Source of the DNA: a candidate division WOR-3 bacterium
GTDB taxonomy: Bacteria; Hydrothermota; UBA3072; B12-G15
Direction of reading: 5' to 3'
Length of the DNA stretch: 14,707 bases
Assembly (NCBI GenBank): GCA_965649055.1
Contig: CBFGJG010000046.1
Span: 1-14,707 of the forward strand
Shown: positions 96 through 14,707 of the stretch, one piece after another
Position numbering within the stretch: position 1 is the stretch's first letter
Layout of the letters: every line of letters starts with the position of its first letter
Position numbers and translations under genes: made by a program
Notes under the pieces: generated by a model
What the model saw: only the letters and a program-made list of their open reading frames with translations
The model's database searches: none
What the model was told of the DNA's origin: nothing

Positions 96-1175
96 ATGGC
101 TGTAAATAATATAAAGGATCTGCTTGAAGAAATGGTGAGAAGAAATGCAAGTGATTTGCATTTAACAGTTGCAGCTCCACCTGTCTTCAGAATTGACGGA
201 CAACTTGTTCCAGGGAATTATGAACCTTTCACACCCGAAGATGTAAAAAAACTTGTTTATAGTATATTAAATGATGAGCAAAAGAAAAAATTTGAGACCG
301 AGAAGGAACTTGACTTGAGTTTTGGTATTCCAGGACTTTCAAGATTCAGAGGAAATGTTTTCTATCAAAGAGGACAGGTTGCAATGGCTATAAGAACTAT
401 TCCATTTAAAATTAGGACTTTCAGAGAACTTGGTCTTCCCCCGGTTGTTGCAGACCTTACTACTAAACAGAAAGGATTAATACTTGTAACTGGGCCAACA
501 GGTTGTGGAAAATCAACAACACTTGCAGCAATGATTGATAAAATAAGCAATGAAAGAAAATGTCATATTGTTACTATCGAAGACCCTATTGAGTATCTGT
601 TCAAACACAAACTTTCTATAGTTAACCAGAGACAGGTTGGTTCAGATACATATTCGTTCCAAAAAGCATTGAAATACGTCTTAAGGCAAGACCCTGATGT
701 AGTTATGGTTGGTGAGATGAGAGACCTTGAAACAACCGAAGCAGCATTAACGATTGCAGAAACAGGACATTTAACACTTGCGACACTCCATACAAACTCA
801 GCAGCTGAATCAATATCAAGGATAATAGATATATTTCCTACAAATAGACAATCACAGGTCAGGGCACAGCTTGCCTTTGTTATTCTTGCTGTTATTACAC
901 AATCACTGATTCCTAAACTTACAGGTGGAAGGGCGTTATGTCTTGAAATACTTATAGGAACACCTGCAATAAAAGCATTGATAAGGGATAATAAATTACA
1001 TCAAATTTATTCAAGTATGCAAGCAGGGCAGAAATATGGAATGATAACAATGAATCAGTCTTTATACCAGTTATATAGTTCAAGACAGATTTCACTGGAA
1101 GATGCAATTTCTTATTCGAGAAATCCAGAAGAACTTGAAAAGATGATTGAACAAAAATCTATGATAGTAAAATAA
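96..1175 (+). CDS. pilT: Type IV pilus retraction (twitching motility) ATPase PilT
   Basis: ASDLHL N-terminal motif, Walker A GPTGCGKST, Asp box TIEDPIE, Walker B LRQDPDVVMVGEMRD, His box AETGHLTLATLHT, and the AIRNLIRE-like helix AIKALIRD. Confidence 0.95.
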   Translation: MAVNNIKDLLEEMVRRNASDLHLTVAAPPVFRIDGQLVPGNYEPFTPEDVKKLVYSILNDEQKKKFETEKELDLSFGIPGLSRFRGNVFYQRGQVAMAIRTIPFKIRTFRELGLPPVVADLTTKQKGLILVTGPTGCGKSTTLAAMIDKISNERKCHIVTIEDPIEYLFKHKLSIVNQRQVGSDTYSFQKALKYVLRQDPDVVMVGEMRDLETTEAALTIAETGHLTLATLHTNSAAESISRIIDIFPTNRQSQVRAQLAFVILAVITQSLIPKLTGGRALCLEILIGTPAIKALIRDNKLHQIYSSMQAGQKYGMITMNQSLYQLYSSRQISLEDAISYSRNPEELEKMIEQKSMIVK

Positions 1176-1188
1176 AAAAGGGGGATAA

Positions 1189-2397
1189 ATGCCTATTTAT
1201 GTTTGGAAAGGTAAAACTGCATCAGGAATAATCCAGACAGGTGAAATAGTTGCAGCAAACCCTCAAGAAGTTCACAATATATTAAGGGAAAGAAAAATTG
1301 TCCCGACCTCTGTAAAACCAAAGCCCAAAGAATTAACTTTACCTTTTGGAAAAGGGGTTGGATTAAGAGACTTATCAATCTTCACAAGACAATTTGCAAC
1401 TATGATCAATGCAGGTTTACCTCTTATAAAATGTCTTGAAATTCAGGAGCAACAGGTTACAAAAGCTACATTTAAGAACGTTTTAAGGCAGGTTATTACA
1501 GATGTTGAAGGTGGTTCAACACTTGCAGATTCCTTAAAAAAACATAAGGCTATATTCAGTGATCTTTATGTGAATATGGTCGCAGCCGGTGAGAGTGGTG
1601 GTGCACTTGATGTGATTCTCAATAGGCTTGCCACATATCTTGAAAAGAATGCTGAGATTATAAGAAAGATAAAAGGGGCTATGATTTATCCTGCAATGAT
1701 ATCTGTTGTTATGGTTGTTGCAGTCGTTCTTATGTTAACAGTGGTTATTCCTGTATTTGCTGCTATGTATACTGGTCTGGGTTCCAAACTCCCTCTTCCA
1801 ACGCAGATTGTTATAAATATGAGTAACTTTTTGAAGAAATATATTATCTATATGATCATTGCCGCAATTGCAGCAGCTATTGTTTTCAGAATATATTACA
1901 GGACTGAGAATGGACATTTTGTTATTGATGGTTTTATGTTAAAAGTTCCCATATTTGGAGACCTTATAAAAAAACAGTCTCTCACAAGATTCTCAAGAAC
2001 CCTTGCGACACTTCTTTCAAGTGGTGTAAACATTCTTGAAGCACTTGAAATAACAGCCAAGACTTCAGGTAATAAGGTAATAGAAAAGGCAATTTTACGT
2101 TCAAGGGCATCTATTGCACAAGGTGAATCAGTTGCAACTCCATTATCTAAAGAAAAAGGTCTATTCCCACCTATGGTTGTTCAGATGATAACTATTGGTG
2201 AGCAAACTGGCGGTCTTGATGAAATGTTGAATAAGGTTGCTGATTTCTATGATGCTGAAGTAGACCAGGCAGTTGGGAACCTGATGGCAGCAATGGAGCC
2301 AATAATAATGATAGTTTTGGGTGTTGTTGTAGGTGGTATGTTAATGGCAATGTATCTTCCTATATTTAAACTCGCCACTGAATTTATAGGCGGTTAA
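1189..2397 (+). CDS. pilC: Type IV pilus inner-membrane platform protein PilC (GspF family)
   Basis: FTRQFATMINAGLPL, AAGESGGALD, KIKGAMIYP, GEQTGGLDEML, EPIIM and MYLPIF motifs; two T2SSF repeats with TM helices; follows pilT. Confidence 0.95.
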   Translation: MPIYVWKGKTASGIIQTGEIVAANPQEVHNILRERKIVPTSVKPKPKELTLPFGKGVGLRDLSIFTRQFATMINAGLPLIKCLEIQEQQVTKATFKNVLRQVITDVEGGSTLADSLKKHKAIFSDLYVNMVAAGESGGALDVILNRLATYLEKNAEIIRKIKGAMIYPAMISVVMVVAVVLMLTVVIPVFAAMYTGLGSKLPLPTQIVINMSNFLKKYIIYMIIAAIAAAIVFRIYYRTENGHFVIDGFMLKVPIFGDLIKKQSLTRFSRTLATLLSSGVNILEALEITAKTSGNKVIEKAILRSRASIAQGESVATPLSKEKGLFPPMVVQMITIGEQTGGLDEMLNKVADFYDAEVDQAVGNLMAAMEPIIMIVLGVVVGGMLMAMYLPIFKLATEFIGG

Positions 2398-3887
2398 TGA
2401 GAAAAAAAGTTCTTTTTTACATAATTTCAAGAAATTTTTTCTATTATTTTTTTCTATTTTTTATTTATTTTATTCTGAAGGGTGATAGGATTTCATTCAT
2501 CCCGATATTCATTTTTATCGGATTTAACCTTTTGGATTCTATCTTAAATATTATTTACCTTAGGGAAATCAGCATATTTCTTTTAATTAGAGAAAGTTTA
2601 ATTTTCAGTTTTTTCTGCATTATAACAGGTGGACCAGAATCTCCATTTCTTCCTTTTTATTTTATTTTGATATTGATAACATCTTTTAATCTTTCGCTTG
2701 GGAAAACATATCTTATGACAACAATAATAAGTATCTTATTATGTATTGTAATTTTTGGAAAGGACTTAATATATCCCGAAATGTTATCATTTGTTAATAT
2801 AGTTCAAAAACCAAGGCTTGATTTAATAATTGAAACTTCAATTTATATTTTTCTTTTCTTCCTTGTATCTTCAATATCTGTATTTCTGAGCGAAAGATTA
2901 AGGAAGGAAATTAAAAGAATAAAGATAAAGACAGAAGATATTCTAAACTCTATAAAAATAGGTATAATTACAACTGATTTAGACAACAATATTTTATCAT
3001 TAAACAGATGGGCAAGAGATATTTTTTCTTTAAAAGAAGGAATGAATCTTTTAGATACAAATAACTCTAATATCTTAAAAAAATCCATTTTGAATGTAAT
3101 GGAAACCGGAAAAGAAGTCGAATTTGAATTAAATAGTAAAACATATTCATTAACATATTATCAAATTGAAGAAGGTAAGGGAAAAGTTTTTATAATAACT
3201 GATATTACTGAAAAAAAAGAACTCACAAAAAAAATTATATTATACGACAGAATGGCAACCATAGGAAAATTTGCTGCTGATATTGCTCATGAACTTAGAA
3301 ATCCTTTTATGTCTATCAGGAATGCAATATCTCTATTACAGAATGATAATAATCTCAATAAAAAAGAAAAGGAAAAATTATGGAACTACATTATTCTTGA
3401 AAGTGATAGAATAGAAGACTTGATAAAAGACTTTTTGACTTATTCGAAAGATATAAAACTTGAAATAAAAGAAGTTAAATTAAAAGATTTACTTAAAGAA
3501 GTTATAAATTCTATAAGATTTCATCCATCTTTTAGAAAAGATGTGAAAATTATCCTAAAATGTGAAGATATCAAGATAAATGTAGATCCGGAAAGATTTA
3601 AAAGTGTTATTTCAAACCTTATTGATAATTCTTTCAAGGCAATCAAAGGAAAAGGAATAATAACAATTAGAGCTTTTGAGGATAAAAAAACAATAATAGA
3701 AGTTGAAGATAATGGTGAAGGTATACCTGAAAATCTAAAAAATAACATATTCCAGCCTTTTTTTACAACAAGGAAAGAAGGTGCAGGATTTGGTTTAGCA
3801 ATTGTTAAAAAGATTGTCGAATTACACAATGGGAATGTAAGTTTCAAATCAAAGAAAGGTAAGACTGTATTCAGAATAGAGTTATGA
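2397..3887 (+). CDS. pilS: Membrane sensor histidine kinase, PilS-like
   Basis: Multi-TM N-terminus with TGGPESPF, PAS-like segment, H-box AHELRNP, N-box NLIDNS, G1 EDNGEGI, F box FQPFFTT, G2 GAGFGL. TAATG coupling to pilC; position between pilC and a sigma54 regulator. Confidence 0.85.
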   Translation: MRKKVLFYIISRNFFYYFFLFFIYFILKGDRISFIPIFIFIGFNLLDSILNIIYLREISIFLLIRESLIFSFFCIITGGPESPFLPFYFILILITSFNLSLGKTYLMTTIISILLCIVIFGKDLIYPEMLSFVNIVQKPRLDLIIETSIYIFLFFLVSSISVFLSERLRKEIKRIKIKTEDILNSIKIGIITTDLDNNILSLNRWARDIFSLKEGMNLLDTNNSNILKKSILNVMETGKEVEFELNSKTYSLTYYQIEEGKGKVFIITDITEKKELTKKIILYDRMATIGKFAADIAHELRNPFMSIRNAISLLQNDNNLNKKEKEKLWNYIILESDRIEDLIKDFLTYSKDIKLEIKEVKLKDLLKEVINSIRFHPSFRKDVKIILKCEDIKINVDPERFKSVISNLIDNSFKAIKGKGIITIRAFEDKKTIIEVEDNGEGIPENLKNNIFQPFFTTRKEGAGFGLAIVKKIVELHNGNVSFKSKKGKTVFRIEL

Positions 3888-5221
3888 TAAAACCTACTGT
3901 ATTGATTATTGATGATGAAAGAAGTTTAGTAGATATTTTAAAAATCGGGATGGAAAATGAAGGATATAAGGTTTTTGCAGCATACGACCCTGATACCGGA
4001 TTAAAAATATTCAAAGATGAAAAAACTGATGTGGTTATATCAGATATTAAAATGCAAAAGATGACAGGATTACAACTATTAAAGGAAATAAAAAAGATAG
4101 AACCAAATGTTATATTTATTTTAATAACTGCATATTCATCATTTGAAAGTGCTATAGAAGCATTACGGGGTGGAGCATCGGATTATCTCGTAAAGCCATT
4201 TGACCTTGAAGAACTAATATTCAGGATTGAGAATGCAATTAAAAAGAGGGAACTCCAGATAGAAGTCAGTTCTTTAAAGACAGAAAAACTTAAAGAACTG
4301 AATATTGTCGGTAAAAGCGAAGCAATAGAAAATGTCAAAGAAATAATAAAAAAAGTTGCATCACTGAATACGAACGTTCTAATAACCGGAGAAAGTGGTT
4401 CTGGAAAAGAACTTGTAGCACAACTTATACACTATCAGTCTTCAAGACCTGGAAGATTCATTCCGATAAATTGTGCGTCAATTCCTGAAAACCTCCTCGA
4501 AAGTGAACTGTTTGGATACAAGAGAGGTGCATTTACAGGGGCTGTTTCTGACAAAGATGGTGTATTCAAACTTGCTGATAAAGGAACTGTATTTCTTGAC
4601 GAAATAACTGAGTTACCATTATTACTTCAACCTAAACTTCTAAGGGTAATAGAAACTTTTGAGTATATCCCTCTTGGGGGAACTAAGACTGAAAAAGTAG
4701 ATGTCAGGATTATTGCTGCAACAAACAGAGAAATTGAAGAAGAAGTTAAAAAGGGTAATTTCAGAGAAGACCTTTATTACAGATTAAATGTAATTCCGAT
4801 TCGTATACCGCCATTAAGAGACCGGATTGAAGATATTCCAGTTCTAATTGAATATTTTATGAATAAAATATCTACAAGGTTTAATATTAAACCTAAAAAG
4901 TTTGATAAAAATGCTTTAAAATTGTTGCTTGATTATAATTGGCCGGGGAATGTCAGAGAACTTGAAAACCTGATAGAGAGAATCCTCGTTCTTGAAAAAG
5001 AAGAAACCATAAACACTGAGATAATAAAAAAATACCTCACAAAGATTGAGCAGGATAATAAAAAAGAAACGAGCAATCTGTCCGAAATAGAGAAAAATAC
5101 TATTTTAAAAACACTTGAAGAGTGTAAAGGAAATATTACTAAAGCATCAAAAAAACTCGGTGTTCATCCTTCAACACTTTATAGAAAACTTAAAAAACTA
5201 AATATTAATAAATATCTTTAA
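3884..5221 (+). CDS. pilR: sigma54-dependent NtrC-family response regulator, PilR-like
   Basis: Receiver domain (IIDDE, SDIKM, YLVKPF), AAA+ domain (GESGSGKE, ESELFG, GAFTGA, FLDEI, WPGNVREL), Fis-type HTH. ATGA overlap with pilS. Confidence 0.88.
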   Translation: MIKPTVLIIDDERSLVDILKIGMENEGYKVFAAYDPDTGLKIFKDEKTDVVISDIKMQKMTGLQLLKEIKKIEPNVIFILITAYSSFESAIEALRGGASDYLVKPFDLEELIFRIENAIKKRELQIEVSSLKTEKLKELNIVGKSEAIENVKEIIKKVASLNTNVLITGESGSGKELVAQLIHYQSSRPGRFIPINCASIPENLLESELFGYKRGAFTGAVSDKDGVFKLADKGTVFLDEITELPLLLQPKLLRVIETFEYIPLGGTKTEKVDVRIIAATNREIEEEVKKGNFREDLYYRLNVIPIRIPPLRDRIEDIPVLIEYFMNKISTRFNIKPKKFDKNALKLLLDYNWPGNVRELENLIERILVLEKEETINTEIIKKYLTKIEQDNKKETSNLSEIEKNTILKTLEECKGNITKASKKLGVHPSTLYRKLKKLNINKYL

Positions 5222-6770
5222 TAATATGGGGTGTTAGGAATATCAAAACCTCTCTATCCCTTGTTTCTTTATATGTCCTTCTAAACATGAAACCTATTAA
5301 CGGCAGGTTTTTTAGAATAGGTATACCTTCAATCCTTTCTGTCTCAGTTTGCTGTATAAACCCACCTATAACGAGTGTTTCACCGTCCTTAATCACTGCT
5401 CTTGTCGAAGCATTAGTCATCGTGATTAATTTTTCCGTTATTACATCACTTAATTCAATTTCTATATTCATTGTAATATCCTCAAGTGAATTTATCTGTG
5501 GAATGCATATAAGCCTTATACCTGCAGTAAACCATGTTACAACCGGGTTACCCCTCTGGTCAATAACTGTTGCGGAGAATTTTTTACCTCCAAAGACCTC
5601 AGCCTGCTGATTATTTGCAGTTGTAACCCTTGGATTTGCGATTGTATGAATTTTATTATTTGTTTCAAGTGCCTTCAGAGTTCCTATTAACTTTGCAAAA
5701 TCCCTTATTGTTCCAAGTGTCAGGTATATGCCACCTATTGGACCTCCTGCCTGTGAACTTGAAACCTCTCCACCAATATTCCATTGAGGTTGTGTCATAT
5801 AATTTGTTCCAAGTGATAACGCAAGGTCATTAATAACTGATTTGTCGGCGTCAATAATCCTTGCTTCTATTGATACCTGTGGTGTCTTTGTATCAAGAAT
5901 CCTGACAAGACTTTCAACTTCTCTCATTTTGGATTCAACATCCTTCACAATCACCGAGTTTGTCCTTTTGTCCACATCAATTGAACCTCTTTTTGTAAGT
6001 AATCCTTTAATAATCTTTGCAACATCCTCGCAAAATGCAAATTCCAATTTTATAACCTTTTGAACAAGTGGGGATGCCATTTCCTGTGATTCTCTTTCTG
6101 CCTCAAAGTCTTTTCCGCTACCAACCCTTATCACATTCCCTTCAATAACATACGCAAAACCCTTTGTCTGTAGAATAAGCCTCAAAGCATCTTCCCAATA
6201 AACATTATCAAGCTTAACAGTAACTAATCCTTTTACAGCATCTCCAATTATTATATTCATACCTGCATATTCTGCAATTGCCCTTAATGCTGTTTCAAGA
6301 CTTGCATTTTCATAATTCAAAGAAAGTTTTGTTTTTACCGGTGTGTACTGCCTTTCCTCTTTTATCTCGGGGACAACATCTTTCGATTTTGAGAGTGTAA
6401 CAGGTGCAAATGCCTCTGTATTTGTACTTATCTCAATTGTAATATTTTTGTCTGATTGTGAAACAAGATAATTGAACGCATTAGCAGCATTAATGGTAAT
6501 CCTTAACATATTCGCGGAAGGAACAGTTGAAAACTCAATGCTATTTATCTTTCCTTTAGAAACATTCCAGACATTCTGGTCAAAATCTGTGGTTGTATTG
6601 AGCAAATCTATAACAATTGAATTGTCAACTGTGAAATCTGTATAACTTGTTTTTTCATCAAGTGTAAAATTGACAATTGTGGTCTGGTTGCTACCTGAAA
6701 TAGTAACCTCTGTTAATTTTGCTCCAAACAAACAGATAACAAGTAAAACAATAAGAATTGTTTTTCTCAT
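5205..6770 (-). CDS. pilQ: Type IV pilus secretin PilQ
   Basis: Signal peptide, AMIN-like N-terminal region, N0/STN segment (VTVKLDNVYWEDAL), N3 segment (VDKRTNSVIVKD), secretin domain (PQVSIEARI, DGETLVIGG, GIPILKNLPLIGFMF, LIFLTPHI); last gene of pilMNOPQ. Confidence 0.93.
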   Translation of the reverse strand: MRKTILIVLLVICLFGAKLTEVTISGSNQTTIVNFTLDEKTSYTDFTVDNSIVIDLLNTTTDFDQNVWNVSKGKINSIEFSTVPSANMLRITINAANAFNYLVSQSDKNITIEISTNTEAFAPVTLSKSKDVVPEIKEERQYTPVKTKLSLNYENASLETALRAIAEYAGMNIIIGDAVKGLVTVKLDNVYWEDALRLILQTKGFAYVIEGNVIRVGSGKDFEAERESQEMASPLVQKVIKLEFAFCEDVAKIIKGLLTKRGSIDVDKRTNSVIVKDVESKMREVESLVRILDTKTPQVSIEARIIDADKSVINDLALSLGTNYMTQPQWNIGGEVSSSQAGGPIGGIYLTLGTIRDFAKLIGTLKALETNNKIHTIANPRVTTANNQQAEVFGGKKFSATVIDQRGNPVVTWFTAGIRLICIPQINSLEDITMNIEIELSDVITEKLITMTNASTRAVIKDGETLVIGGFIQQTETERIEGIPILKNLPLIGFMFRRTYKETRDREVLIFLTPHIIKDIY

Positions 6771-7330
6771 TTATCCCCCTCTTTTGATTTTAAATAAAGA
6801 ACGATTTTTTGAACCTGTTCAAATTGTTGTAATCTAAAAGTTATTGAGTTTTTATCTATCTTCTCCACATAACCATTAATAACCTTATCACCTTCTCTTA
6901 AAACATAACCTGAACCACCAATTTCTTTAACCAGTGCAATATAACCATTAGCTCCCCAGATAGTTCCAACAAGTTCGGCATCCTCCACCTGTAAACCTTT
7001 CTCTGAAGTTCCTTTTGTAACCAGTGGATTAAATGGGTCTGATTTTCCTCTGTCGCTATACACAAAGATCTCCCATTTTAAGGCTTCATTAACATCCCTT
7101 ATTGTATCAATCTTTGAAAAATCCAAGGTGTCTATATTAGTTGGTACCGGATTAACCTGAGAAAGAATCATCTTTTCAGGAAGTGATGGGTTATCAAATC
7201 TTGGAGAAAAAAATGAAATAGTTTTATCAACAAGTCTATCAAAGAAGTTAGAATTAGAAGAACAACTTAAAAGTAATAATAAAAGTAAAACAAAGATACT
7301 ATTTATGAGGCTTTTTCTTATCTTTTTCAT
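6767..7330 (-). CDS. pilP: Type IV pilus assembly lipoprotein PilP (start revised to ATG at 7330, 187 aa)
   Basis: AGGAGGT SD at 7338-7344 before the ATG at 7330; basic N-terminus, poly-Leu h-region and lipobox LLSC (Cys23); SDPF motif (RDPF-like) and C-terminal beta domain LVGTIW...GYVLREGDKV; lies between pilO and pilQ. Confidence 0.8.
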   Translation of the reverse strand: MKKIRKSLINSIFVLLLLLLLSCSSNSNFFDRLVDKTISFFSPRFDNPSLPEKMILSQVNPVPTNIDTLDFSKIDTIRDVNEALKWEIFVYSDRGKSDPFNPLVTKGTSEKGLQVEDAELVGTIWGANGYIALVKEIGGSGYVLREGDKVINGYVEKIDKNSITFRLQQFEQVQKIVLYLKSKEGDK

Positions 7331-7868
7331 CTTTAACACCTCCTGTTGAACCCACATAAGCGGATAGATTCATCGAAGCAGTGAGTTTTTCTTTTTCTGT
7401 TTTTATTGAAATACTGTTAACATTAACTATTCTGGGCATATTATTTAAAGCTGCAAGAAACCTTGCTATATCATGATAACCACCCGAGACGCTCATTTCT
7501 ATTGACAGTTCTCCGTATCCGCCTTTTTCAACAATATTTGGAGAAGGTTTAAACAATAATATTTTAACACCTGACATACCTGCATATCTTGAAATCTCAT
7601 TTAACAGGTTTGTCATAGTTATTGTTTGTGGTAGCATTTCATTTGCCTTTTCCCATCTTTTCTTGATAATCATATATTCAAGAAGGGCTTTATCTTTTTT
7701 CTCGGCAACAGCCCTTGCCTTGTTTAAGTCTTCTGAAACCTTCTGATATTCACCCCTTATTTTCAAATACTCCGCTTTCTTTTTATTAATAATAAGAAAA
7801 TATCCAAGGGCAAAAATCACAATTGCAAGCAAAATGATAATATAAGAATATCTTATTTTTCCTATCAT
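7299..7868 (-). CDS. pilO: Type IV pilus assembly protein PilO
   Basis: N-terminal TM helix, coiled coil, MLP...LLNEIS, and GGYHDIARFLAALNNMPRIVNV PilO signature. Confidence 0.9.
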   Translation of the reverse strand: MIGKIRYSYIIILLAIVIFALGYFLIINKKKAEYLKIRGEYQKVSEDLNKARAVAEKKDKALLEYMIIKKRWEKANEMLPQTITMTNLLNEISRYAGMSGVKILLFKPSPNIVEKGGYGELSIEMSVSGGYHDIARFLAALNNMPRIVNVNSISIKTEKEKLTASMNLSAYVGSTGGVKDEKDKKKPHK

Positions 7869-8452
7869 TATCCACCTCCTGCTGGATGGACGTTTCCACG
7901 TATTGAAAATTGCATTAAATTATGCTCCTCTATATTCACATATTTAGTTTCTATTAAAGTAATGTTTGATATGTAATTTGAATTTTCAAGATTTTGCATA
8001 AATTGTGTAACTATTAGATTTGAAAAAGTAATTCCTGAAATATTTATTGTTCCAGCAACAATATTAATGTCAGTTAACCACATATAATCAGGAATATTTT
8101 TATTAATCTCATCAATAACATGTATCATTAAAGATCTATTCAAATTAAGATTTTTAACAAGTTCTATAAGGATATTGAGTTGTTTTTGTTTGCTCTCAAG
8201 AGAATTTACCAGTTCCACTTCAGGCTGTAATTTAGTCAATTCCTGTTTTGCAACCTGAATATCATTTTTTACCTTCTTTATCTTTTTTATATAATTAAAA
8301 TTTATAAAAAATACAAGGAATATAGAAATTAAGAGAAGTATAAGACTCGCATATAAATCCCATCCTTTAAGAGTAATCTTTGGAAGTCCTACTGCTCTTT
8401 TAGCTCTTACCTTTTTTCTTTCTTCCTTTGGAATAAGATTTACCTTTATCAT
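7868..8452 (-). CDS. pilN: Type IV pilus assembly protein PilN
   Basis: N-terminal IKVNLIP (INLLP-type PilM-binding motif), TM helix, coiled coil, IPDYMWLT and FMQNLENS motifs. Confidence 0.9.
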   Translation of the reverse strand: MIKVNLIPKEERKKVRAKRAVGLPKITLKGWDLYASLILLLISIFLVFFINFNYIKKIKKVKNDIQVAKQELTKLQPEVELVNSLESKQKQLNILIELVKNLNLNRSLMIHVIDEINKNIPDYMWLTDINIVAGTINISGITFSNLIVTQFMQNLENSNYISNITLIETKYVNIEEHNLMQFSIRGNVHPAGGG

Positions 8453-9483
8453 CCTTCACCTCTCAATGTAAGGCCTAATGGTAATGCTATTATGGGTCCC
8501 AATTTTCTTAAATCTTCTTCATAGGCGTTGGGGGCAATTTCAAATTTCTTAAGTGGGTCTATTATTTCCACATTGATTCCAAATCTCTGGTAAAGAAAAT
8601 CATTAAGATTTGATATAAGAGCCCCACCTCCACTCAATATAATCTTGTCAAGTTTATCAAATCCTTCAGGAAGATATGGGAGAACCCTTTCAATTGCTAC
8701 TGCAATATCATCAAGGAATGACTGAAACGCATTCTTAAATGCAAACTGGTCAACATCTTCGGTTGATTTTCCTATTATCATATTTAAAGCCCTTTCCCTG
8801 TTAACCCCTAATTCCCTTTGAATTGCCTGAATTAATGTGTTTACAGCAGTGGTAACTTCCCTTGTGAAATGGTTTATTGCTCCCTGAACGTAACTTATAC
8901 TTGTGAATTGAGCACCAATATGAATATGTCCAATCAGTGATTTAGAATCCGTCCCATAATTGTATTCGTAAATATTTTGAATAGCAAAGATAGGAATTTC
9001 AAATACTATCGGATTCAGACCTGCATCTCTTAAAAGCATAAGTCTTGAATCAACAGAATCTTTTTTAGCACCAACTAAAAGAACCTCCATCATATTTTCA
9101 CCAACATCAGGATTCAATATCTGAAAGTCAAGGATGACATCCTCGATTCCATATGGTATGTATTGTTCAGCCTCCCATTTTACCTGTTCAGCTGCTTCTG
9201 ATTCTTTCATTTTTGCCATCTTAATTTTTTTTACAATTACATCCCTCGAAGGAATAGATGCTATTATTTCGTTTTCTGAAATACCGGCTTTATCAAACAG
9301 TCTTTTGATAGTGTCAACAACTATTTCCTTATCCATAACTTCACCATCAACTATCACATGAGGTTCAATATGTTCCATTACAAATTTAGCCACTTTTGGC
9401 TTTTTGGGAAAACCTTCCACTGCTATAATTTTAATTAAAGAACTACCAATATCTACACCAACTGTTAATCTTTTTCTCGGCAT
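8449..9483 (-). CDS. pilM: Type IV pilus assembly protein PilM (actin/FtsA-like)
   Basis: VGVDIGSSLIK, WEAEQYIPY, LDFQIL, VLLVGAKK, IILSGGGA, and C-terminal GLTLR. Confidence 0.93.
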   Translation of the reverse strand: MPRKRLTVGVDIGSSLIKIIAVEGFPKKPKVAKFVMEHIEPHVIVDGEVMDKEIVVDTIKRLFDKAGISENEIIASIPSRDVIVKKIKMAKMKESEAAEQVKWEAEQYIPYGIEDVILDFQILNPDVGENMMEVLLVGAKKDSVDSRLMLLRDAGLNPIVFEIPIFAIQNIYEYNYGTDSKSLIGHIHIGAQFTSISYVQGAINHFTREVTTAVNTLIQAIQRELGVNRERALNMIIGKSTEDVDQFAFKNAFQSFLDDIAVAIERVLPYLPEGFDKLDKIILSGGGALISNLNDFLYQRFGINVEIIDPLKKFEIAPNAYEEDLRKLGPIIALPLGLTLRGEG

Positions 9484-9504
9484 TTCTCACCCCACATTTT
9501 TTTT

Positions 9505-9533
9505 AATATAAATAAAAATCAATGATTTGTCAA
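9505..9533 (-). promoter_or_regulatory. sigma70-type promoter of the pilMNOPQ operon
   Basis: Minus-strand TTGACA (9533-9528), 17-nt spacer, TATATT (9510-9505); A-tracts upstream; SD GGGGTG at 9493-9488. Confidence 0.75.
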
Positions 9534-9566
9534 CTATTTTTTTATTTTTTTGTTTAATATTTATCA

Positions 9567-9974
9567 TCATTTTATTATCAAAAATGGAATATCCAGTTTA
9601 ATTTTTATTATCTCTTCTAACTCACTTTCATTTGGCTCACAAAATATTACAATATCAGGTTCTAATGAGTTTAATATAATACCCATTTCTTCAGAACCAT
9701 TAAAAATTTTTGTTTTTAAATTTATATTCAAATCTTTTGACTTGAAAAATTCTTCAATTTCGTATAACTCTTCGTATCTTTTTTGTATCTGTTCTTCTTC
9801 AACATTTTTCCTTTTTCTTCCTGTCTCGCTACAAATCTGTTCTATTATTTTTGAGTCGATAAGAGAAATAAAGAAATTTTTTGCTGAATTATTCCTGGCA
9901 AATTCAAAAATGATATCAAGGGTTTTCTGGGAAATTTTCTTTTCGAGTATAACAGAAACAATTTTTTTAAACAT
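9567..9974 (-). CDS. Degenerate universal stress protein (USP)-like protein
   Basis: 135 aa; MFKKIVSV start, beta strand FISLID, PDIVIF and terminal IPFLIIK match the USP pattern. The ATP-binding G-2x-G-9x-G(S/T) motif is absent. Starts 1 nt after the permease stop. Confidence 0.55.
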   Translation of the reverse strand: MFKKIVSVILEKKISQKTLDIIFEFARNNSAKNFFISLIDSKIIEQICSETGRKRKNVEEEQIQKRYEELYEIEEFFKSKDLNINLKTKIFNGSEEMGIILNSLEPDIVIFCEPNESELEEIIKIKLDIPFLIIK

Positions 9975-9975
9975 A

Positions 9976-11922
9976 CTAACCTGCCTTTTTAATCTGTAAT
10001 ATTAATAATAAGATGGAAAAGATAATCGTTATAAAAACTACAGGTAATCCATATTTCAGCCATTTAACAAATCCTATTGTTCTACCTTCTGATTTCTCAT
10101 AAACAGAAATTGCAACCATATTAGCACTCGAACCTATCATTGTAAGGTTCCCACCAAAACAACCGCCAAAAAGTAAACCCCACCAGAGAATAGAAGAGTG
10201 TGGCAAACCCATAGCCTGCATAGTTTTTACAATAGGAACCAGAGCAGCAATTATTGGAAGGTTATCAACAAAACCAGAAGCAATTGAAGTAAAAATTGTA
10301 ATAATTATCAGGGAAACAATTGTTATAGAAACATCTTTTGAAAAAATCGGTATATATATTTTTTGTGAAATGTTGAACAAAGAAAAAGCCATCTTTGTTG
10401 TAACTCCAGTATATTCAAGACATGCTGCTTTTGCGAAAAGAAACATAAAAAATATAATAGTCCACCAATCAACTCCTTCTTTGAAAAGAATTTTTCCGTA
10501 TGATTTTTCATAGAAAATAATAAAACCAGCAAAGGTCAAAGGTATTGCAACGAGAATTGTGTTTGGTAAAAGATTAAAAATATTATCAAATCTTTTTGAA
10601 AATCCAATCAATAGTATAACGACGAAAAAGATTATTATACCTAATTTTAATTTTTTCCTATCATTTACATTTTCATAAGGATTAATATTGAAATCAGGAA
10701 TCAGAATTTTTGAAGGTATTTTTTTTCTGAATACAATAAGCAGAAAAAAACTTACAAGAAACGTAAGAAATAAAGCAATAGGCGTTGCCCATCTCAAGAA
10801 ATCTTCTATAGTAAGTTTTGCTCCAAAAGCTATATAAATACCGATTGGGTTTCCAACCAATGTTAATGCAGAACCAATATTTGTAGCAAATACTATACTA
10901 ATAATAAAAGGAAAAGAAGGAAGACCAAGTTCTGAACAGAGTGACAAGGCAAGTGTTGATATTACAAGAATACCTGTAACTTCACCAGTTAATCCCCCAA
11001 GGATAACAGAAATAAAAACAAGTATTAAAAAAATTATTCTTGGTTTTGCACCAATTCTTTTTATTATATTTGCAATAAAAAAATTAAAGATTCCTATTTC
11101 TTCGAGCCAAGATATAATAATCATCATAGAGATTATAAAAAGAATAGTAGGAATATTCATAAATTCAACTGCAGAAATAAGGTCCATAGTTCCCGATATT
11201 AGCAAAATACCTAAAGCAATAGTTGAAATAGCAACACGATATTGCCAGAATAATAAAGTCCCTATTACAGTTGAAAAAAATACTACTGAAGCAACTATCT
11301 GTTTATTTATCCATTCTCTTTCGTTAAATTTTAAAATATTAAGTGAATTTGTAATTTCATTTTCAGGTATGTTCAATTTTGGTATAAGAATGCTAAACAA
11401 AATAAATGTAAAGATTATACTAAAAATAAACCAGATTGTTTTCTTGTTTTTTTCAAAGAAACTTTCCTTTTCCCTTCTTAAGAAAACTGACACTACTGAT
11501 GAAGAATCATTACATTTAAGAATTTTTTCAATAATATCTTTATCATGAAAAAAAGTCGCAACTTGAGAGAGAATCAAAAGGTATTCTTTCTTAAGTGATT
11601 CCGGTGCAAGTATTAGTATTATAATTTTAACAGGTTTGCCATCAATTGAATCGTAATCTATCCCATTTTTTTGAATAAGCAAAAAAACATAAATTTTATC
11701 GATTTCATTAAGTCTTATATGTGGAATTGCCAAATAATTACCAATACCAGTTGAACCTTTTTTTTCTCTTTCGAAAAGTTCGTTTAAAAATTTTTCTTTA
11801 TCTTTGATTATTCCTCTTTTTATAAGAACTTCAGCAAAAAAATTAAAAACTTCTTTTTTAGAGTTTATATTCTGATTTATAAATATATTACTTTTTTCTA
11901 TGTATTCTTCAAGATTTTTCAA
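9976..11922 (-). CDS. Fusion of an N-terminal PTS EIIA (Ntr/Fru/Mtl-type) domain and an ArsB/NhaD/CitM-type IT-superfamily permease
   Basis: Residues about 1-150 carry REKKGSTGIGNYLAIPH (His68) and YDSIDGKPVKII. The remainder is polytopic membrane protein with ATNIGSALTLVGNP, VDWWTIIFFMFLF, SGFVDNLP and GGNLTMIGSSAN. TTG start overlaps the small-subunit gene by 14 bp. Confidence 0.85.
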   Translation of the reverse strand: MKNLEEYIEKSNIFINQNINSKKEVFNFFAEVLIKRGIIKDKEKFLNELFEREKKGSTGIGNYLAIPHIRLNEIDKIYVFLLIQKNGIDYDSIDGKPVKIIILILAPESLKKEYLLILSQVATFFHDKDIIEKILKCNDSSSVVSVFLRREKESFFEKNKKTIWFIFSIIFTFILFSILIPKLNIPENEITNSLNILKFNEREWINKQIVASVVFFSTVIGTLLFWQYRVAISTIALGILLISGTMDLISAVEFMNIPTILFIISMMIIISWLEEIGIFNFFIANIIKRIGAKPRIIFLILVFISVILGGLTGEVTGILVISTLALSLCSELGLPSFPFIISIVFATNIGSALTLVGNPIGIYIAFGAKLTIEDFLRWATPIALFLTFLVSFFLLIVFRKKIPSKILIPDFNINPYENVNDRKKLKLGIIIFFVVILLIGFSKRFDNIFNLLPNTILVAIPLTFAGFIIFYEKSYGKILFKEGVDWWTIIFFMFLFAKAACLEYTGVTTKMAFSLFNISQKIYIPIFSKDVSITIVSLIIITIFTSIASGFVDNLPIIAALVPIVKTMQAMGLPHSSILWWGLLFGGCFGGNLTMIGSSANMVAISVYEKSEGRTIGFVKWLKYGLPVVFITIIFSILLLILQIKKAG

Positions 11923-12400
11923 GTAGTCTCTTCCTTGTATAAGCTATCAAACCTCCTGCATCGATGATACTCTGTCTTGTTTTTGGCAGTGGCTGAATTT
12001 CAAATTTCTTATTCTTTGTTTTATTAAAAACAAAACCATTTTGAATCTCAATATCATCACCCTCTTCAGCATCTATCTCTGGACAGATAATAATATTCAG
12101 ACCCAGATTTATTGCATTTTGTAGAAAAATTCTTGCAAAACTTTTTGCTATAACGACAAGTTCATGGCCTTTCAGGGTTGACGCGGCCTGTTCCCTTGAA
12201 GAACCACATCCAAAATTTTCACCCGCAACGATAATACTTCCTGGTGGTATTTCTTTATTGTTTAACTTTTTATTAAATTCTTTATTATCTGCAAAAGCAT
12301 ATTGAGGAGTCTCCGAAGGAAGCACGGTAGCCATATATCTTCCTGGGTAAATTATATCAGTAGAAATATCGTTCCCAAGTTTTAGAACAACCTTTGACAT
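11909..12400 (-). CDS. leuD: LeuD/HacB/DmdB-family hydro-lyase small (swivel) subunit; substrate uncertain, symbol is family-level
   Basis: [58 protein letters not shown]. Confidence 0.85.
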
Positions 12401-12409
12401 TTCTCCTCC

Positions 12410-13699
12410 TTATTTTATTTTTCTTGGGTCTGTTATTTCACCATTAATTGCACTTGCTGCTGCAACCGCCGGTGAACATAAATAAACTTCAGAGTTTGGA
12501 TTTCCCATTCTACCTTTAAAATTTCTGTTTGTGGTAGATAATGCAACTTCACCATCACCAAGAGCGCCTTGATGAACTCCAAGACAACAACCACAACCAG
12601 GATTCATTATCACGGCACCTGCATCAACAAGTATTCCGATGTATCCTTTCTTTAATGCATTTTTGTAAATCCTCCAGGAAGCTGGGAAAACAAGCATCCT
12701 AACACTTTTTGAAATTTTTTTCCCTTTCAATATATTTGCTGCTATTTCAATATCATCTAATCTTCCATTTGTGCAGGAACCAATAACAATCTGGTCTATC
12801 TTCTTACCCTCAACTTCATTAACCGGTTTAACATTATCTACAGAGTGTGGACAGGCAATCTGCGGAACAAGTTTTGAAGCATCAATTTCAACTATCGAAT
12901 CATAGATTGCATCATTATCTGGAATTATCCTTGTAATATTCTCTTTAACACCTGCTTCTTCTTTTAGATATCGTGCAGTTTCTTCATCAGCAGGAACAAT
13001 ACCTGATGTTGCTCCTGCTTCAACAGACATATTACAAAGAACAAGCCTTCCAGAAACATTCATATTTTTAATTGTATCACCATGGAATTCGAGAACCTTA
13101 AAATTAGCACCTTCAGCAGATATTTTCCCTATTAGATTTAGAATAATATCTTTTGGAAGAACATATTTGGGCAATTTACCAGAAACCACTACTTTTATTG
13201 TTGGTGGAACTTCTATGTTTAATGCAACTCCAAGTGCCCAGACGCTTGCCATCTCAGTAGCACCAATGCCAAAAGCAAATGCACCAAGTGCACCATGAGA
13301 AGTAGTATGACTATCAGTTCCGACTACAACATATCCTGGTCTCACATATCCAAATTCAGGCAAAATCTGATGACATATTCCACCTTCTATTGAATTTATA
13401 TCGTGAAAATTCTTTATTCCCTGTAATCTTGCAAATTCCCTGATCTTTTTCTGATTAGTTGCTGTCTTTGAACTTTCAGCTGGAACTCTGTGGTCGAAAA
13501 TTATAACAATCTTATTTGGGTCAAAAACTTTTGGTTCAAGATTTGTTCCCTTATAAATTTCAAGGAATTGATTTATTACAAGTGCTGCATTTTCATGAGA
13601 CATAGCTACATCTACTTTTGGTTCAACTACATCACCAACATTTACTTCGCTAAGATTAGAAGCCCTTGCAAGAATTTTTTCTACAACTGTTTTTCCCAT
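12410..13699 (-). CDS. leuC: LeuC/HacA/DmdA-family [4Fe-4S] hydro-lyase large subunit; substrate uncertain, symbol is family-level
   Basis: IFDHRVP, GICHQ, GTDSHT, NMSVEAGA, GSCTNGR, PGCGCCLG, STTNRNFKGRMG, YLCSPAVAAASA; 429 aa short (archaeal/HacA-like) type. Confidence 0.88.
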   Translation of the reverse strand: MGKTVVEKILARASNLSEVNVGDVVEPKVDVAMSHENAALVINQFLEIYKGTNLEPKVFDPNKIVIIFDHRVPAESSKTATNQKKIREFARLQGIKNFHDINSIEGGICHQILPEFGYVRPGYVVVGTDSHTTSHGALGAFAFGIGATEMASVWALGVALNIEVPPTIKVVVSGKLPKYVLPKDIILNLIGKISAEGANFKVLEFHGDTIKNMNVSGRLVLCNMSVEAGATSGIVPADEETARYLKEEAGVKENITRIIPDNDAIYDSIVEIDASKLVPQIACPHSVDNVKPVNEVEGKKIDQIVIGSCTNGRLDDIEIAANILKGKKISKSVRMLVFPASWRIYKNALKKGYIGILVDAGAVIMNPGCGCCLGVHQGALGDGEVALSTTNRNFKGRMGNPNSEVYLCSPAVAAASAINGEITDPRKIK

Positions 13700-13702
13700 T
13701 TT

Positions 13703-14617
13703 CTACTCCTTGTATTTTGTCTTTATCCTTTCTTTTGGAAGGTATTTTTCTTCTAACTTTCTATATTCAGAAAGACCAACAAAATCAGTAAACTCTTTAA
13801 AAGGTGTAATCCATTTTGTTTCACCTGCAAGTATGCCGGTAGGAGAATTCTTTAATGCTTTAAAGAATTCCATAAGTGCTTTATGCATTACCATTATCGA
13901 AGCAACAGGAATAGAAACCCTCCCAACTCCCATTTTTGCAAGTTCAGGTATTGGTATAAGTTCTGTCTTAACACCACTTACCGCATCCATTAAATTTACT
14001 GATATAGGACCTTTTACTTCTTTAACTGCTTTCTCTATATCTGCTTTAGTTTTTATTCCATCTATAAAAGCAAGGTCTGCACCATTTTCAAGATAGATAT
14101 TACATCTTCTTATTGCTTCATCAATACCATATATTGCATAACAATCCGTTCTTGCATTTATAACAAAATCTTTATCCATCCTGTCCCTTACATCTGCACA
14201 TGCTTTTATTTTTCCAGCCATCTCTTCTGCTGGAATGACTTCTTTTCCAGCCATATGTCCGCACCTTTTAGGGAAAACCTGATCTTCTATATTCATTCCT
14301 GCAACACCCATAGTAATCAATCTTTCTGTGATATATGCAGCGTTAATCGCATTACCACCACCGGTATCAATATCTGCCATAACTGGAATGTTTACAGCTT
14401 GAACAATATTCCATGTTAAATCAAGAATATCTTTCATCTGCACAAGACCAACATCAGGTTTTCCAAGAAGTGAACCTGCAAGACCAAATCCTGAAACCTG
14501 AATTGCTTCAAAACCGCAAGCTTCAATAATTTTAGCACTTAATGCATCATGGCATCCTGGAACAACAATCGCCCTTCTTTCCATTATTGCTTTCTTTAAA
14601 ATAGTAGTTTTTTTCAT
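13703..14617 (-). CDS. Isocitrate lyase/PEP mutase superfamily C-C lyase (methylisocitrate lyase / 2,3-dimethylmalate lyase-like)
   Basis: PGCHDALSA, SGFG, PDVG, ADIDTGGG, IEDQVFPKRCGH, INARTD, GADLAF; SD AAGGAGGA at 14628-14621. Confidence 0.88.
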   Translation of the reverse strand: MKKTTILKKAIMERRAIVVPGCHDALSAKIIEACGFEAIQVSGFGLAGSLLGKPDVGLVQMKDILDLTWNIVQAVNIPVMADIDTGGGNAINAAYITERLITMGVAGMNIEDQVFPKRCGHMAGKEVIPAEEMAGKIKACADVRDRMDKDFVINARTDCYAIYGIDEAIRRCNIYLENGADLAFIDGIKTKADIEKAVKEVKGPISVNLMDAVSGVKTELIPIPELAKMGVGRVSIPVASIMVMHKALMEFFKALKNSPTGILAGETKWITPFKEFTDFVGLSEYRKLEEKYLPKERIKTKYKE

Positions 14618-14626
14618 CTTTCCTCC

Positions 14627-14707
14627 TTAAAGTTTCTCTGCTATGGCTTTTGCCATTTCAATTGTTGTGTTATTCCCACCCATATCATATGTTCTAACTT
14701 TTCCTTC
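14627..14707 (-). CDS. Isocitrate/isopropylmalate (beta-decarboxylating) dehydrogenase family, C-terminal fragment
   Basis: Manual translation EGKVRTYDMGGNNTTIEMAKAIAEKL* matches the T-x-D-L/M-G-G-x-x-x-T-x-E C-terminus of IDH/IPMDH/tartrate dehydrogenase enzymes. Its TAA stop overlaps the SD of the lyase. Truncated by the window edge. Confidence 0.8.
   Translation of the reverse strand, partial: EGKVRTYDMGGNNTTIEMAKAIAEKL

Follow-up and report, generated by a model that had tools for sequence, protein, structure and literature searches.

The 14,707-bp contig CBFGJG010000046.1 of a candidate division WOR-3 bacterium (phylum Hydrothermota) ends in six closely packed genes, among them genes for a beta-decarboxylating dehydrogenase, a carbon-carbon lyase and a LeuC/LeuD-type hydro-lyase, and raises the question of what such a combination does for its host. 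An earlier note, made from the letters of the DNA, had read the six genes as a candidate undescribed operon for organic-acid utilisation. Comparison with other genomes led to another partition: the four enzyme genes form a conserved unit of their own and, with about an even chance of this being correct, encode a coenzyme A (CoA)-independent and reversible series that links 2-oxoacids and acetate and is probably run in the cleavage direction in peptide fermenters. The window, i.e. the whole stretch analysed, was the entire contig. Its source genome measured 2.08 Mb, was 93.8% complete and had a GC content of about 31%; a hot-spring metagenome run contained 79% of the sampled words of the window. 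The six genes are listed below in the order of their transcription.

14627..14707, minus strand: last 26 codons and stop of an NADP-type beta-decarboxylating dehydrogenase of family Iso_dh, an open reading frame (ORF) cut at its 5' side by the contig end; first gene of the conserved module
13703..14617, minus strand: lyase of 304 aa, isocitrate lyase (ICL)/phosphoenolpyruvate (PEP) mutase superfamily, motif KRCGH, petal-death-protein-like (PF13714, 184 bits)
12410..13699, minus strand: large subunit of an archaeal-type LeuC/HacA hydro-lyase, 429 aa (Aconitase, 341 bits; NF001614)
11909..12400, minus strand: small subunit of LeuD/DmdB type, 163 aa, loop Y-M-A-T-V (Aconitase_C, 55 bits; TIGR02087)
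9976..11922, minus strand: fusion of a phosphotransferase system (PTS) EIIA-2 domain and a CitMHS permease, 648 aa, TTG start (PTS_EIIA_2, 132 bits; CitMHS, 141 bits)
9567..9974, minus strand: divergent protein resembling universal stress proteins (USP), 135 aa, paired with the permease (Usp look-alike score 0.95; no family match)

The arrangement described in the earlier note, six co-oriented and tightly packed genes with Shine-Dalgarno sequences, was confirmed by the ORF listing, the gaps and a Shine-Dalgarno scan. The intergenic gaps were 9, 3, 9, -14 (an overlap) and 1 nt, and a Shine-Dalgarno-like stretch was found before every start. It reads AAGGAGG at the lyase and leuD genes, AAGGAG at leuC and AAGGAAGAG at the permease gene; that of the small gene, AAGGCAGG, is weak.

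Conservation of this arrangement was followed in a comparative set of 80 loci from about 15 phyla, assembled around lyase homologues of 74-85% identity; neighbouring ORFs were called with a GC3-weighted caller, and some boundaries in high-GC loci are approximate. The homologue search gave 6893 lyase relatives among 8000 scored candidates. The best of them were 74-90% identical to the window copy and came from metagenome-assembled genomes (MAGs) labelled Aminicenantes/Saccharicenans, Caldisericota, Sumerlaeota, Verrucomicrobiota, Planctomycetota, Chloroflexota, Ignavibacteriota, Bacteroidota, Actinomycetota, Acidobacteriota, Armatimonadota and others. A LeuC gene of at least 60% identity lay on the same strand and at most 2.5 kb downstream of the lyase gene in 53 of the 80 loci; 51 of these also had LeuD, and 39 had an Iso_dh gene (at least 60% identity) directly upstream, the 14 without adjacent Iso_dh being mostly of the Saccharicenans type. 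Seven further loci had just a more distant LeuC (less than 60% identity), situated no more than 6 kb downstream, one showed an arrangement outside all classes, 16 lacked LeuC despite sufficient contig and three lay on contigs too short to judge. The 26-aa dehydrogenase tail of the window was 58-88% identical to the C-termini of the full-length Iso_dh proteins that occupy the same position in other loci. Where the lyase was separated from Iso_dh or stood alone, a module-type Iso_dh (61-74% identity) was present elsewhere in the genome (five of five genomes), in one case adjoining a LeuC gene.

Flanking genes varied from locus to locus (dnaA, nrdD, transporters, peptidases, malic enzyme, 2-oxoacid:ferredoxin oxidoreductase). 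Because the order Iso_dh - lyase - LeuC - LeuD recurs across loci while its flanks differ, this order is the conserved unit, hereafter the module. The expectation that the cluster would be conserved elsewhere thus held for the enzyme core. It failed for the permease and the USP-like gene, which the earlier note had placed in one system with the enzymes: neither of them, nor PilM, was found in any of the 80 loci.

Neighbours of the module were lineage-specific and shared no common theme (MFS transporters, 2-oxoacid:ferredoxin oxidoreductase, malic enzyme, GABA transaminase, a B12-radical-SAM gene, DapB, HisG). No LeuA-, CimA-, homocitrate- or citrate-synthase gene was adjacent to the module in the annotated loci. 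Peptidase genes (S15, S46, M3, M16 and S8) recurred near it. A glutamate symporter of the sodium/glutamate gltS type, 85-100% identical among loci, directly followed LeuD in nine Saccharicenans-type loci (L008, L010-L015, L020 and L021), which have no adjacent Iso_dh and carry it elsewhere in the genome. In one Opitutaceae MAG (L043:4902-7825) the order was L-piperidine-6-carboxylate (P6C)/aminoadipate-semialdehyde dehydrogenase - class-III aminotransferase (PRK05769 type) - Iso_dh - lyase - LeuC - LeuD, with the P6C dehydrogenase at equivalog level (756 vs 730 bits), all on the same strand and with gaps of -4 and 23 nt.

Variants of the module were also observed. Five loci from Ignavibacteriota/Bacteroidota (L042, L050, L053, L064 and L083) had an ORF of about 344 aa between Iso_dh and lyase and another of 143 aa between lyase and LeuC, both conserved and without family match, and a UPF0047 (YjbQ-like) gene after LeuD. 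In one Aminicenantes genome (G049:C1:2278087-2278284), a fragment of 66 codons, 64% identical to the N-terminus of the module Iso_dh, stood right after LeuC/LeuD; it looks like the remnant of a once-adjacent Iso_dh gene, the full-length copy lying 600 kb away. The lyase of three Planctomycetota loci (L051, L057 and L086) was 76-78% identical to the window copy, with LeuC at 42-44%, LeuD at 38-41% and Iso_dh at 47-51%. In these loci, constraint acts far more strongly on the lyase than on the other module proteins.

Does the window copy belong to its own phylum? Matches with an E-value of at most 1e-60 occurred in 15 of 201 sampled genomes of this phylum, the source genome included, and the relatives there were 51-56% identical, none exceeding 56%, whereas copies from Caldisericota and Aminicenantes MAGs had lyases 84-85% identical to that of the window. 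Since identity is so much lower within the phylum than outside it, the window copy was most likely acquired horizontally, as judged from these sequence comparisons. The relatives from the same phylum had the same cluster layout, with 52-56% identity to the window module for the lyase, 54-59% for LeuC and 67% for Iso_dh, and the cluster is older and broader than the highly conserved 'core clade'. A quick tree placed the window as sister to a Caldisericota row with a support of 96; phylum labels mostly clustered in it and changed 23 times, where 13 changes would be the minimum, a pattern suggestive of vertical descent combined with transfer.

The lyase belongs to the ICL/PEP mutase superfamily (PF13714, 184.1 bits vs a gathering score of 31.5) and scored below the equivalog models of PrpB (TIGR02317, 220.8 vs 354.4; NF008455, 190.4 vs 353), isocitrate lyase (TIGR01346, 56.5 vs 275.9) and PEP mutase/carboxyPEP mutase (TIGR02320, 104.7 vs 319.55; TIGR02319, 177.9 vs 420.05). 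Columns D58, D85, D87, E115 and K121-H125 (PrpB numbering) were invariant in both lyase alignments, KRCGH was present, and R158 and N210 were retained. The lyase and E. coli PrpB (1mum, 3eoo) are thus of one fold family, with the metal ligands, K121-H125, R158 and N210 in common. Unlike PrpB, however, the lyase does not keep T212, R241 and R270, which correspond to Met, Met and Phe in the window copy and to Phe throughout in deeper relatives; it also has no prpC or prpD partner, the source genome having no gene of the citrate-synthase family at all. In addition, L234 was exchanged for Ser in lyases of the core and deeper clades, and a 3-residue insert followed N210. In PrpB, the distal carboxylate of the departing succinate is taken to be bound by T212, R241 and R270, and the C2 methyl group to sit in a pocket of F186, L234 and P236, the comparison with the present lyase being one of residue letters at these positions. 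On such a basis, the hydrophobic first site would suit a small leaving group such as acetate, and the enlarged, more polar second site would suit a C2 substituent larger than methyl.

Among known structures the best match was 1zlp, the petal death protein of carnation (183 bits), followed by methylisocitrate lyases; the fungal Dml structure 3fa3 scored 139 bits, under the value of the petal death protein. The catalytic motif of the latter, KKCGH, is closely related to KRCGH, and both proteins have an aromatic residue after the Ser-Gly of the oxyanion loop, lack a basic residue at the position of PrpB R241 and have Phe at that of R270, as read for 1zlp from the structure-search alignment together with the PrpB alignment. 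They differ in that identity is about 40%, that the insert follows the conserved Asn and that the core clade has Asp at PrpB E188; the lyase is moreover bacterial and part of a fixed gene cluster that also encodes hydro-lyase and dehydrogenase. The petal-death-protein-like family has no curated model, and a placement of the lyase in it would draw on the top structural match and the shared pocket Phe. The petal death protein itself is a 2-alkylmalate lyase/oxaloacetate acetylhydrolase. The lyase of the module is proposed as a putative 2-substituted-malate lyase releasing acetate.

This pocket bears directly on the model of the earlier note, according to which an imported unsaturated or 2-substituted di- or tricarboxylate would be hydrated or isomerised by the LeuCD-type enzyme to a 3-substituted malate, from which cleavage by the lyase and oxidative decarboxylation would diverge, a branch comparable to that between ICL and isocitrate dehydrogenase (IDH). 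The CitMHS-type permease is translationally coupled to leuD, and a related strain has the same junction; 3-substituted malates are substrates of known ICL-family lyases as well as of Iso_dh enzymes, and DmdAB with Dml provides a precedent. However, the leaving-group pocket is closed by Met/Phe, the succinate-binding positions being bulky and hydrophobic as in the petal death protein, so that such a branch point is unlikely. The absence of the permease from all 80 loci is not compensated by any other transporter that would recur consistently, and the import of a di- or tricarboxylate found no comparative support, no transporter being consistently linked to the core. Furthermore, the source genome has no malate synthase to take up the glyoxylate, and in one other genome the pair of permease and small ORF stands alone amid housekeeping genes (see below). 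The model as a whole appears decidedly improbable.

The hydro-lyase met subfamily models for both subunits and equivalog models for neither. Its large subunit scored above NF001614 (566.5 vs 385) and TIGR01343 (537.6 vs 385.7) and below TIGR02083 for leucine biosynthesis (463.0 vs 610.65) and NF040615 for the methanogen homoaconitase (499.1 vs 550). The small subunit met the 'LeuD/DmdB' subfamily TIGR02087 (131.8 vs 108.95) and remained below TIGR02084 (138.1 vs 245.85) and NF040625 (133.4 vs 230). The closest match was the isopropylmalate/citramalate isomerase of Methanocaldococcus jannaschii (4kp1/3vba; 421 bits for the large and 115 for the small subunit), homoaconitase of the same organism being slightly less close (4kp2/2pkp; 396 and 104 bits); the heterodimeric archaeal-type layout and the GSSRE motif are shared with these enzymes. 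According to one published account, a five-residue loop of the small subunit decides substrate specificity (PMC7308503). This loop reads YMATV in the window, YLVYT in the M. jannaschii isomerase and YLRTT in homoaconitase. It was [Y/F]MATV in 50 of 54 LeuD orthologues, YMKVT, YMKIT or YMSIT in deeper relatives, of which two out of three carry Lys where homoaconitase has its loop Arg, and YTYSC in the planctomycete variant.

For the dehydrogenase, the 26-aa tail gave weak matches to homoisocitrate and isocitrate dehydrogenase models (AksF2, NAD-IDH). Full-length orthologues belong to family Iso_dh (PF00180, 290-311 bits) and were below the equivalogs of AksF2 (340.7 vs 540), IDH (287 vs 510) and LeuB (201.9 vs 353.2). 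They retain R112 and S113 of E. coli Icd, an Icd-like insert and the motif APKYAGQ, the LeuB counterpart of which is APDIAG. Ile-Val takes the place of Asn-Val in Icd and of Leu-Leu in E. coli LeuB, and an invariant extra Arg lies in the same helix two residues before the catalytic Arg. Icd K344/Y345 are taken to mark the use of NADP, the comparison at these positions and at S113 and N115 being one of residue letters. The dehydrogenase looks NADP(H)-linked from these motifs. In run X2, a related strain is represented by a contig of 527 bases that spans window positions 14487-14707 and extends 306 bases past the window end, so the missing part of the gene is recoverable from public reads.

Could the module simply serve one of the standard pathways in which such enzymes occur? 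Apart from the module, the source genome lacked any further gene of the aconitase or Iso_dh families. Genes for an HMGL-like synthase, citrate synthase, IlvD and malate synthase were absent from it as well, and LysA was not found above cut-off. A second host (G034) likewise lacked citrate synthase, had just a sub-threshold match to the aconitase family beyond the module and had no Iso_dh except that of the module. Many of 20 other hosts carried a long aconitase (about 900 aa) and/or a separate LeuC-type gene beyond that of the module, 18 of the 20 had citrate synthase and 19 had more than one Iso_dh match; in G032, a separate aconitase-IDH cluster was located on contig C13. An HMGL-like gene was absent from eight of these 20, IlvD from all five further hosts examined, and LysX was not found at cut-off in five of five genomes, while LysA, a marker of the diaminopimelate route, was above cut-off in 16 of 21 hosts.

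Leucine and isoleucine biosynthesis was ruled out by the missing HMGL-like and IlvD genes, and biosynthesis of lysine via aminoadipate by the missing LysX, the frequent LysA and, again, the lack of HMGL-like genes in the source genome and in eight of the 20 others. A role as aconitase/IDH pair of the tricarboxylic acid (TCA) cycle was ruled out as a general one, most hosts carrying separate aconitase, citrate synthase and IDH genes. Because most of its hosts carry separate canonical genes and those examined lack the said pathways, the module is an extra function beyond housekeeping aconitase/IDH, branched-chain or lysine biosynthesis. The distinction from leucine and lysine operons drawn in the earlier note was borne out in the same way, with no LeuA or homocitrate synthase gene upstream in the annotated loci and no HMGL-like gene in the source genome.

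Ordinary central metabolism, i.e. aconitase, isocitrate dehydrogenase and (methyl)isocitrate lyase in a TCA cycle with a glyoxylate or methylcitrate shunt, must still be weighed as a whole. Source databases name the lyase 'methylisocitrate lyase', the source genome has no other aconitase-family or Iso_dh gene, and Iso_dh shares R112, S113, the NADP motif and the insert with E. coli Icd. Against this stand the PrpB and ICL scores far under cut-off, the hydrophobic residues at PrpB T212, R241 and R270, and a source genome with neither a gene of the citrate/methylcitrate synthase family nor malate synthase; many other hosts, such as G032, keep separate canonical aconitase and IDH genes. This explanation is very improbable.

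A pathway that would accommodate all three activities can be written as a series. In the first step, the lyase would interconvert a 2-oxoacid(n) plus acetate and a (2R)-2-substituted malate; in the second, the LeuC/LeuD-type hydro-lyase would interconvert 2- and 3-substituted malate; in the third, Iso_dh would interconvert the 3-substituted malate and 2-oxoacid(n+1) plus CO2 and NADPH. A CoA-independent lyase of the ICL/PEP mutase superfamily would thereby replace the acyl-CoA-dependent synthase of the known elongation triads. We infer this serial order, rather than a branch, because the lyase pocket fits the cleavage of a 2-substituted malate with acetate as the leaving part, and no other linear route would draw on all three activities while starting and ending at common metabolites.

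As regards direction, the hosts are amino-acid auxotrophs and probable peptide fermenters, in which we expect the series to operate mostly in reverse: reductive carboxylation of a 2-oxoacid derived from amino acids would be followed by isomerisation and by cleavage into acetate and a shorter 2-oxoacid, with consumption of NADPH and CO2. Chain shortening is favoured because the hosts lack consumers of the longer products, because cleavage is favoured at cellular concentrations according to our own thermodynamic estimate, because the dehydrogenase appears NADP(H)-linked and because peptidase genes lie nearby.

The same series could alternatively run forward and, in anoxic habitats rich in acetate, elongate 2-oxoacids without CoA and at a saving of ATP. 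Acetate would then be added to 2-oxoglutarate to give 2-oxoadipate, to pyruvate to give 2-oxobutyrate or, in hosts without citrate synthase, to oxaloacetate to give 2-oxoglutarate. The triad logic is identical, and the best NCBIfam matches were to homoaconitase and homoisocitrate-dehydrogenase models. Moreover, neither the source genome nor G034 has citrate synthase, the sub-threshold match in G034 is their sole aconitase-family candidate beyond the module, and their Iso_dh is that of the module alone, of which just the 26-codon tail was assembled in the source genome. However, the downstream routes are missing, as shown by the distribution of IlvD, LysX and LysA described above; 18 of 20 hosts have citrate synthase, and aconitase and IDH of their own are present in many; by our estimate, cellular concentrations disfavour a condensation with free acetate; and the NADP-type motif is unlike that of the NAD-type biosynthetic LeuB. 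We therefore consider a biosynthetic role unlikely.

Chain shortening being the preferred reading, the identity of the side chain comes into question, for which there are two leading candidates. With a carboxyethyl group, 2-oxoadipate would be interconverted with 2-oxoglutarate and acetate via homoisocitrate and homocitrate. With methyl or another small alkyl group, the path would lead between 2-oxobutyrate and pyruvate plus acetate via 3-methylmalate and citramalate. A carboxylated chain is suggested by the extra Arg and the Icd-like R112/S113 of the dehydrogenase, by Lys in the loops of some deeper LeuD relatives, by Ser in the lyase pocket and by the best family scores, which went to homoaconitase and homoisocitrate-dehydrogenase models; the glutamate symporter in the nine Saccharicenans-type loci and the P6C dehydrogenase operon of the Opitutaceae MAG suggest the same. 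A methyl or small alkyl chain is suggested by the YMATV loop of the core clade, which has no basic residue, by the Ile-Val of the dehydrogenase and by the nearest characterised relatives, a citramalate isomerase and a 2-alkylmalate lyase. Citrate is an unlikely substrate, since separate genes for aconitase and IDH are retained in most hosts.

Several points weigh against chain shortening of this kind, or at least complicate it. The assignment of substrate and direction leans on homology, residue comparison and pathway logic, and the clues to the side chain conflict between carboxylated and alkyl. The reductive carboxylation is thermodynamically tight by our estimate. P6C dehydrogenase was found near equivalog level (at least 707 bits) in just four of 21 hosts and beside the module in one of the 80 loci; lysine breakdown therefore cannot be the general source of substrate, and lysine catabolism was weakened as a candidate. 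The genes next to the module show no single consistent theme. Lastly, the extreme conservation of the planctomycete lyase, which stays at about 78% where its partners drop to 38-50%, has no explanation in this scheme.

How, then, did the permease come to follow the module in the window? Both domains of the fusion were above gathering scores (CitMHS, 141.3 vs 31.9; PTS_EIIA_2, 132.4 vs 27). Full-length relatives were found in one of 30 related genomes (G028), at 41% identity. There (locus L107; G028:C5, 7475-11770), two tandem EIIA-CitMHS genes are split by a 137-aa ORF that is weakly similar to the small protein of the window (E-value 0.009), the whole lying among dnaB, radA, coaBC and recJ. 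The permease and the USP-like gene thus look like an independent two-gene unit, joined locally onto the end of the operon and outside the module. In the window genome this unit is likely co-transcribed with the enzyme genes, because the permease overlaps leuD by 14 nt and this junction is kept in a strain of another study that is about 90-95% identical. Control of the permease by phosphorylation, also proposed in the earlier note, is plausible because the EIIA domain retains the AIPH histidine motif and the genome encodes PTS enzyme I. The USP label of the small protein fared less evenly: the Usp look-alike score came from a language-model search with 174 shared features, whereas no Pfam Usp match with an E-value of at most 0.01 and no NCBIfam match were obtained.

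The small gene is followed by a gap of 83 nt and then, on the same strand, by pilM, pilN, pilO, a weak pilP-like gene and a secretin gene (pilQ-like), a continuation unmentioned in the earlier note. Within this gap lies the best sigma-70-like site of the region, which is a probable downstream boundary of the transcription unit; the total count of such sites was no higher than in shuffled sequences, and the site is to be read as a consensus match. No riboswitch or leader RNA was matched at the Rfam gathering score in the window and seven loci. The rest of the contig, positions 96-9483, is filled by a type IV pilus region, whose genes were assigned by family search. Site and genes are as follows.

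9505..9533, minus strand: sigma-70-like site, 11 of 12 consensus positions matched, inside the 83-nt gap before pilM
6767-9483, minus strand: weak PilP-like gene, pilO, pilN and pilM
5205-6770, minus strand: secretin
3884-5221, plus strand: sigma-54 response regulator
2397-3887, plus strand: histidine kinase
1189-2397, plus strand: PilC-type platform protein
96-1175, plus strand: PilT/PilB-type ATPase

GC content was 35-37% over the enzyme genes (12001-14500) and 26-31% over the permease region (9501-12000), the contigs of the genome being mostly at 30-33%. The contrast would agree with enzyme genes of foreign origin, but protein conservation could also explain it.

The chemistry proposed for the module is that of the elongation triads (LeuA/LeuCD/LeuB, homocitrate synthase/HacAB/homoisocitrate dehydrogenase and AksA/AksDE/AksF), in which the same isomerase and dehydrogenase families are clustered, and its chemical layout is also that of citrate synthase, aconitase and IDH. 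Unlike the elongation triads, the module has no HMGL-like Claisen synthase, either in the cluster or anywhere in the source genome, and has a lyase of the ICL superfamily instead; its dehydrogenase shows an NADP-type motif, and its hosts are without the downstream amino-acid pathways. DmdAB with Dml, from the nicotinate fermentation of Eubacterium barkeri, pairs a LeuCD-type hydratase with a KRCGH lyase as the module does, but has no Iso_dh partner; 2,3-dimethylmalate cannot be oxidised at C2. No published description of the four-gene cluster was found in the full-text literature searched, and to this extent the earlier view of an undescribed operon applies to the enzyme cluster. The enzyme families are known; their fixed combination and the proposed CoA-free series are not, as far as this search shows.

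On a broader and more tentative view, which we hold at well under even odds, the module may represent a CoA-independent 'retro-elongation' that gene transfer has carried into a dozen or more phyla, most of them uncultured, and that acts as a sink for redox equivalents and CO2 during the anaerobic fermentation of amino acids. The ICL-superfamily lyase would then be a non-homologous counterpart of LeuA-, CimA- and homocitrate-synthase-type enzymes, and 2-oxoadipate, for example, could be converted to 2-oxoglutarate without oxygen or glutaryl-CoA.

The module is common, the cluster occurring in MAGs labelled with about 15 phyla and the lyase having thousands of relatives. Its genes bear the pipeline labels 'methylisocitrate lyase', 'isopropylmalate dehydratase' and 'isocitrate dehydrogenase'. 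Owing to these labels, metabolic reconstructions of Aminicenantes, Ignavibacteriota, Anaerolineae, Verrucomicrobiota and others probably credit the organisms with methylcitrate, leucine or TCA steps that are not performed by these genes. If the serial reading is true, the module would be a thioester-free and readily reversible version of the 2-oxoacid homologation triad, and would bear on energy-limited anaerobic metabolism as well as on engineered routes of chain elongation or chain shortening.

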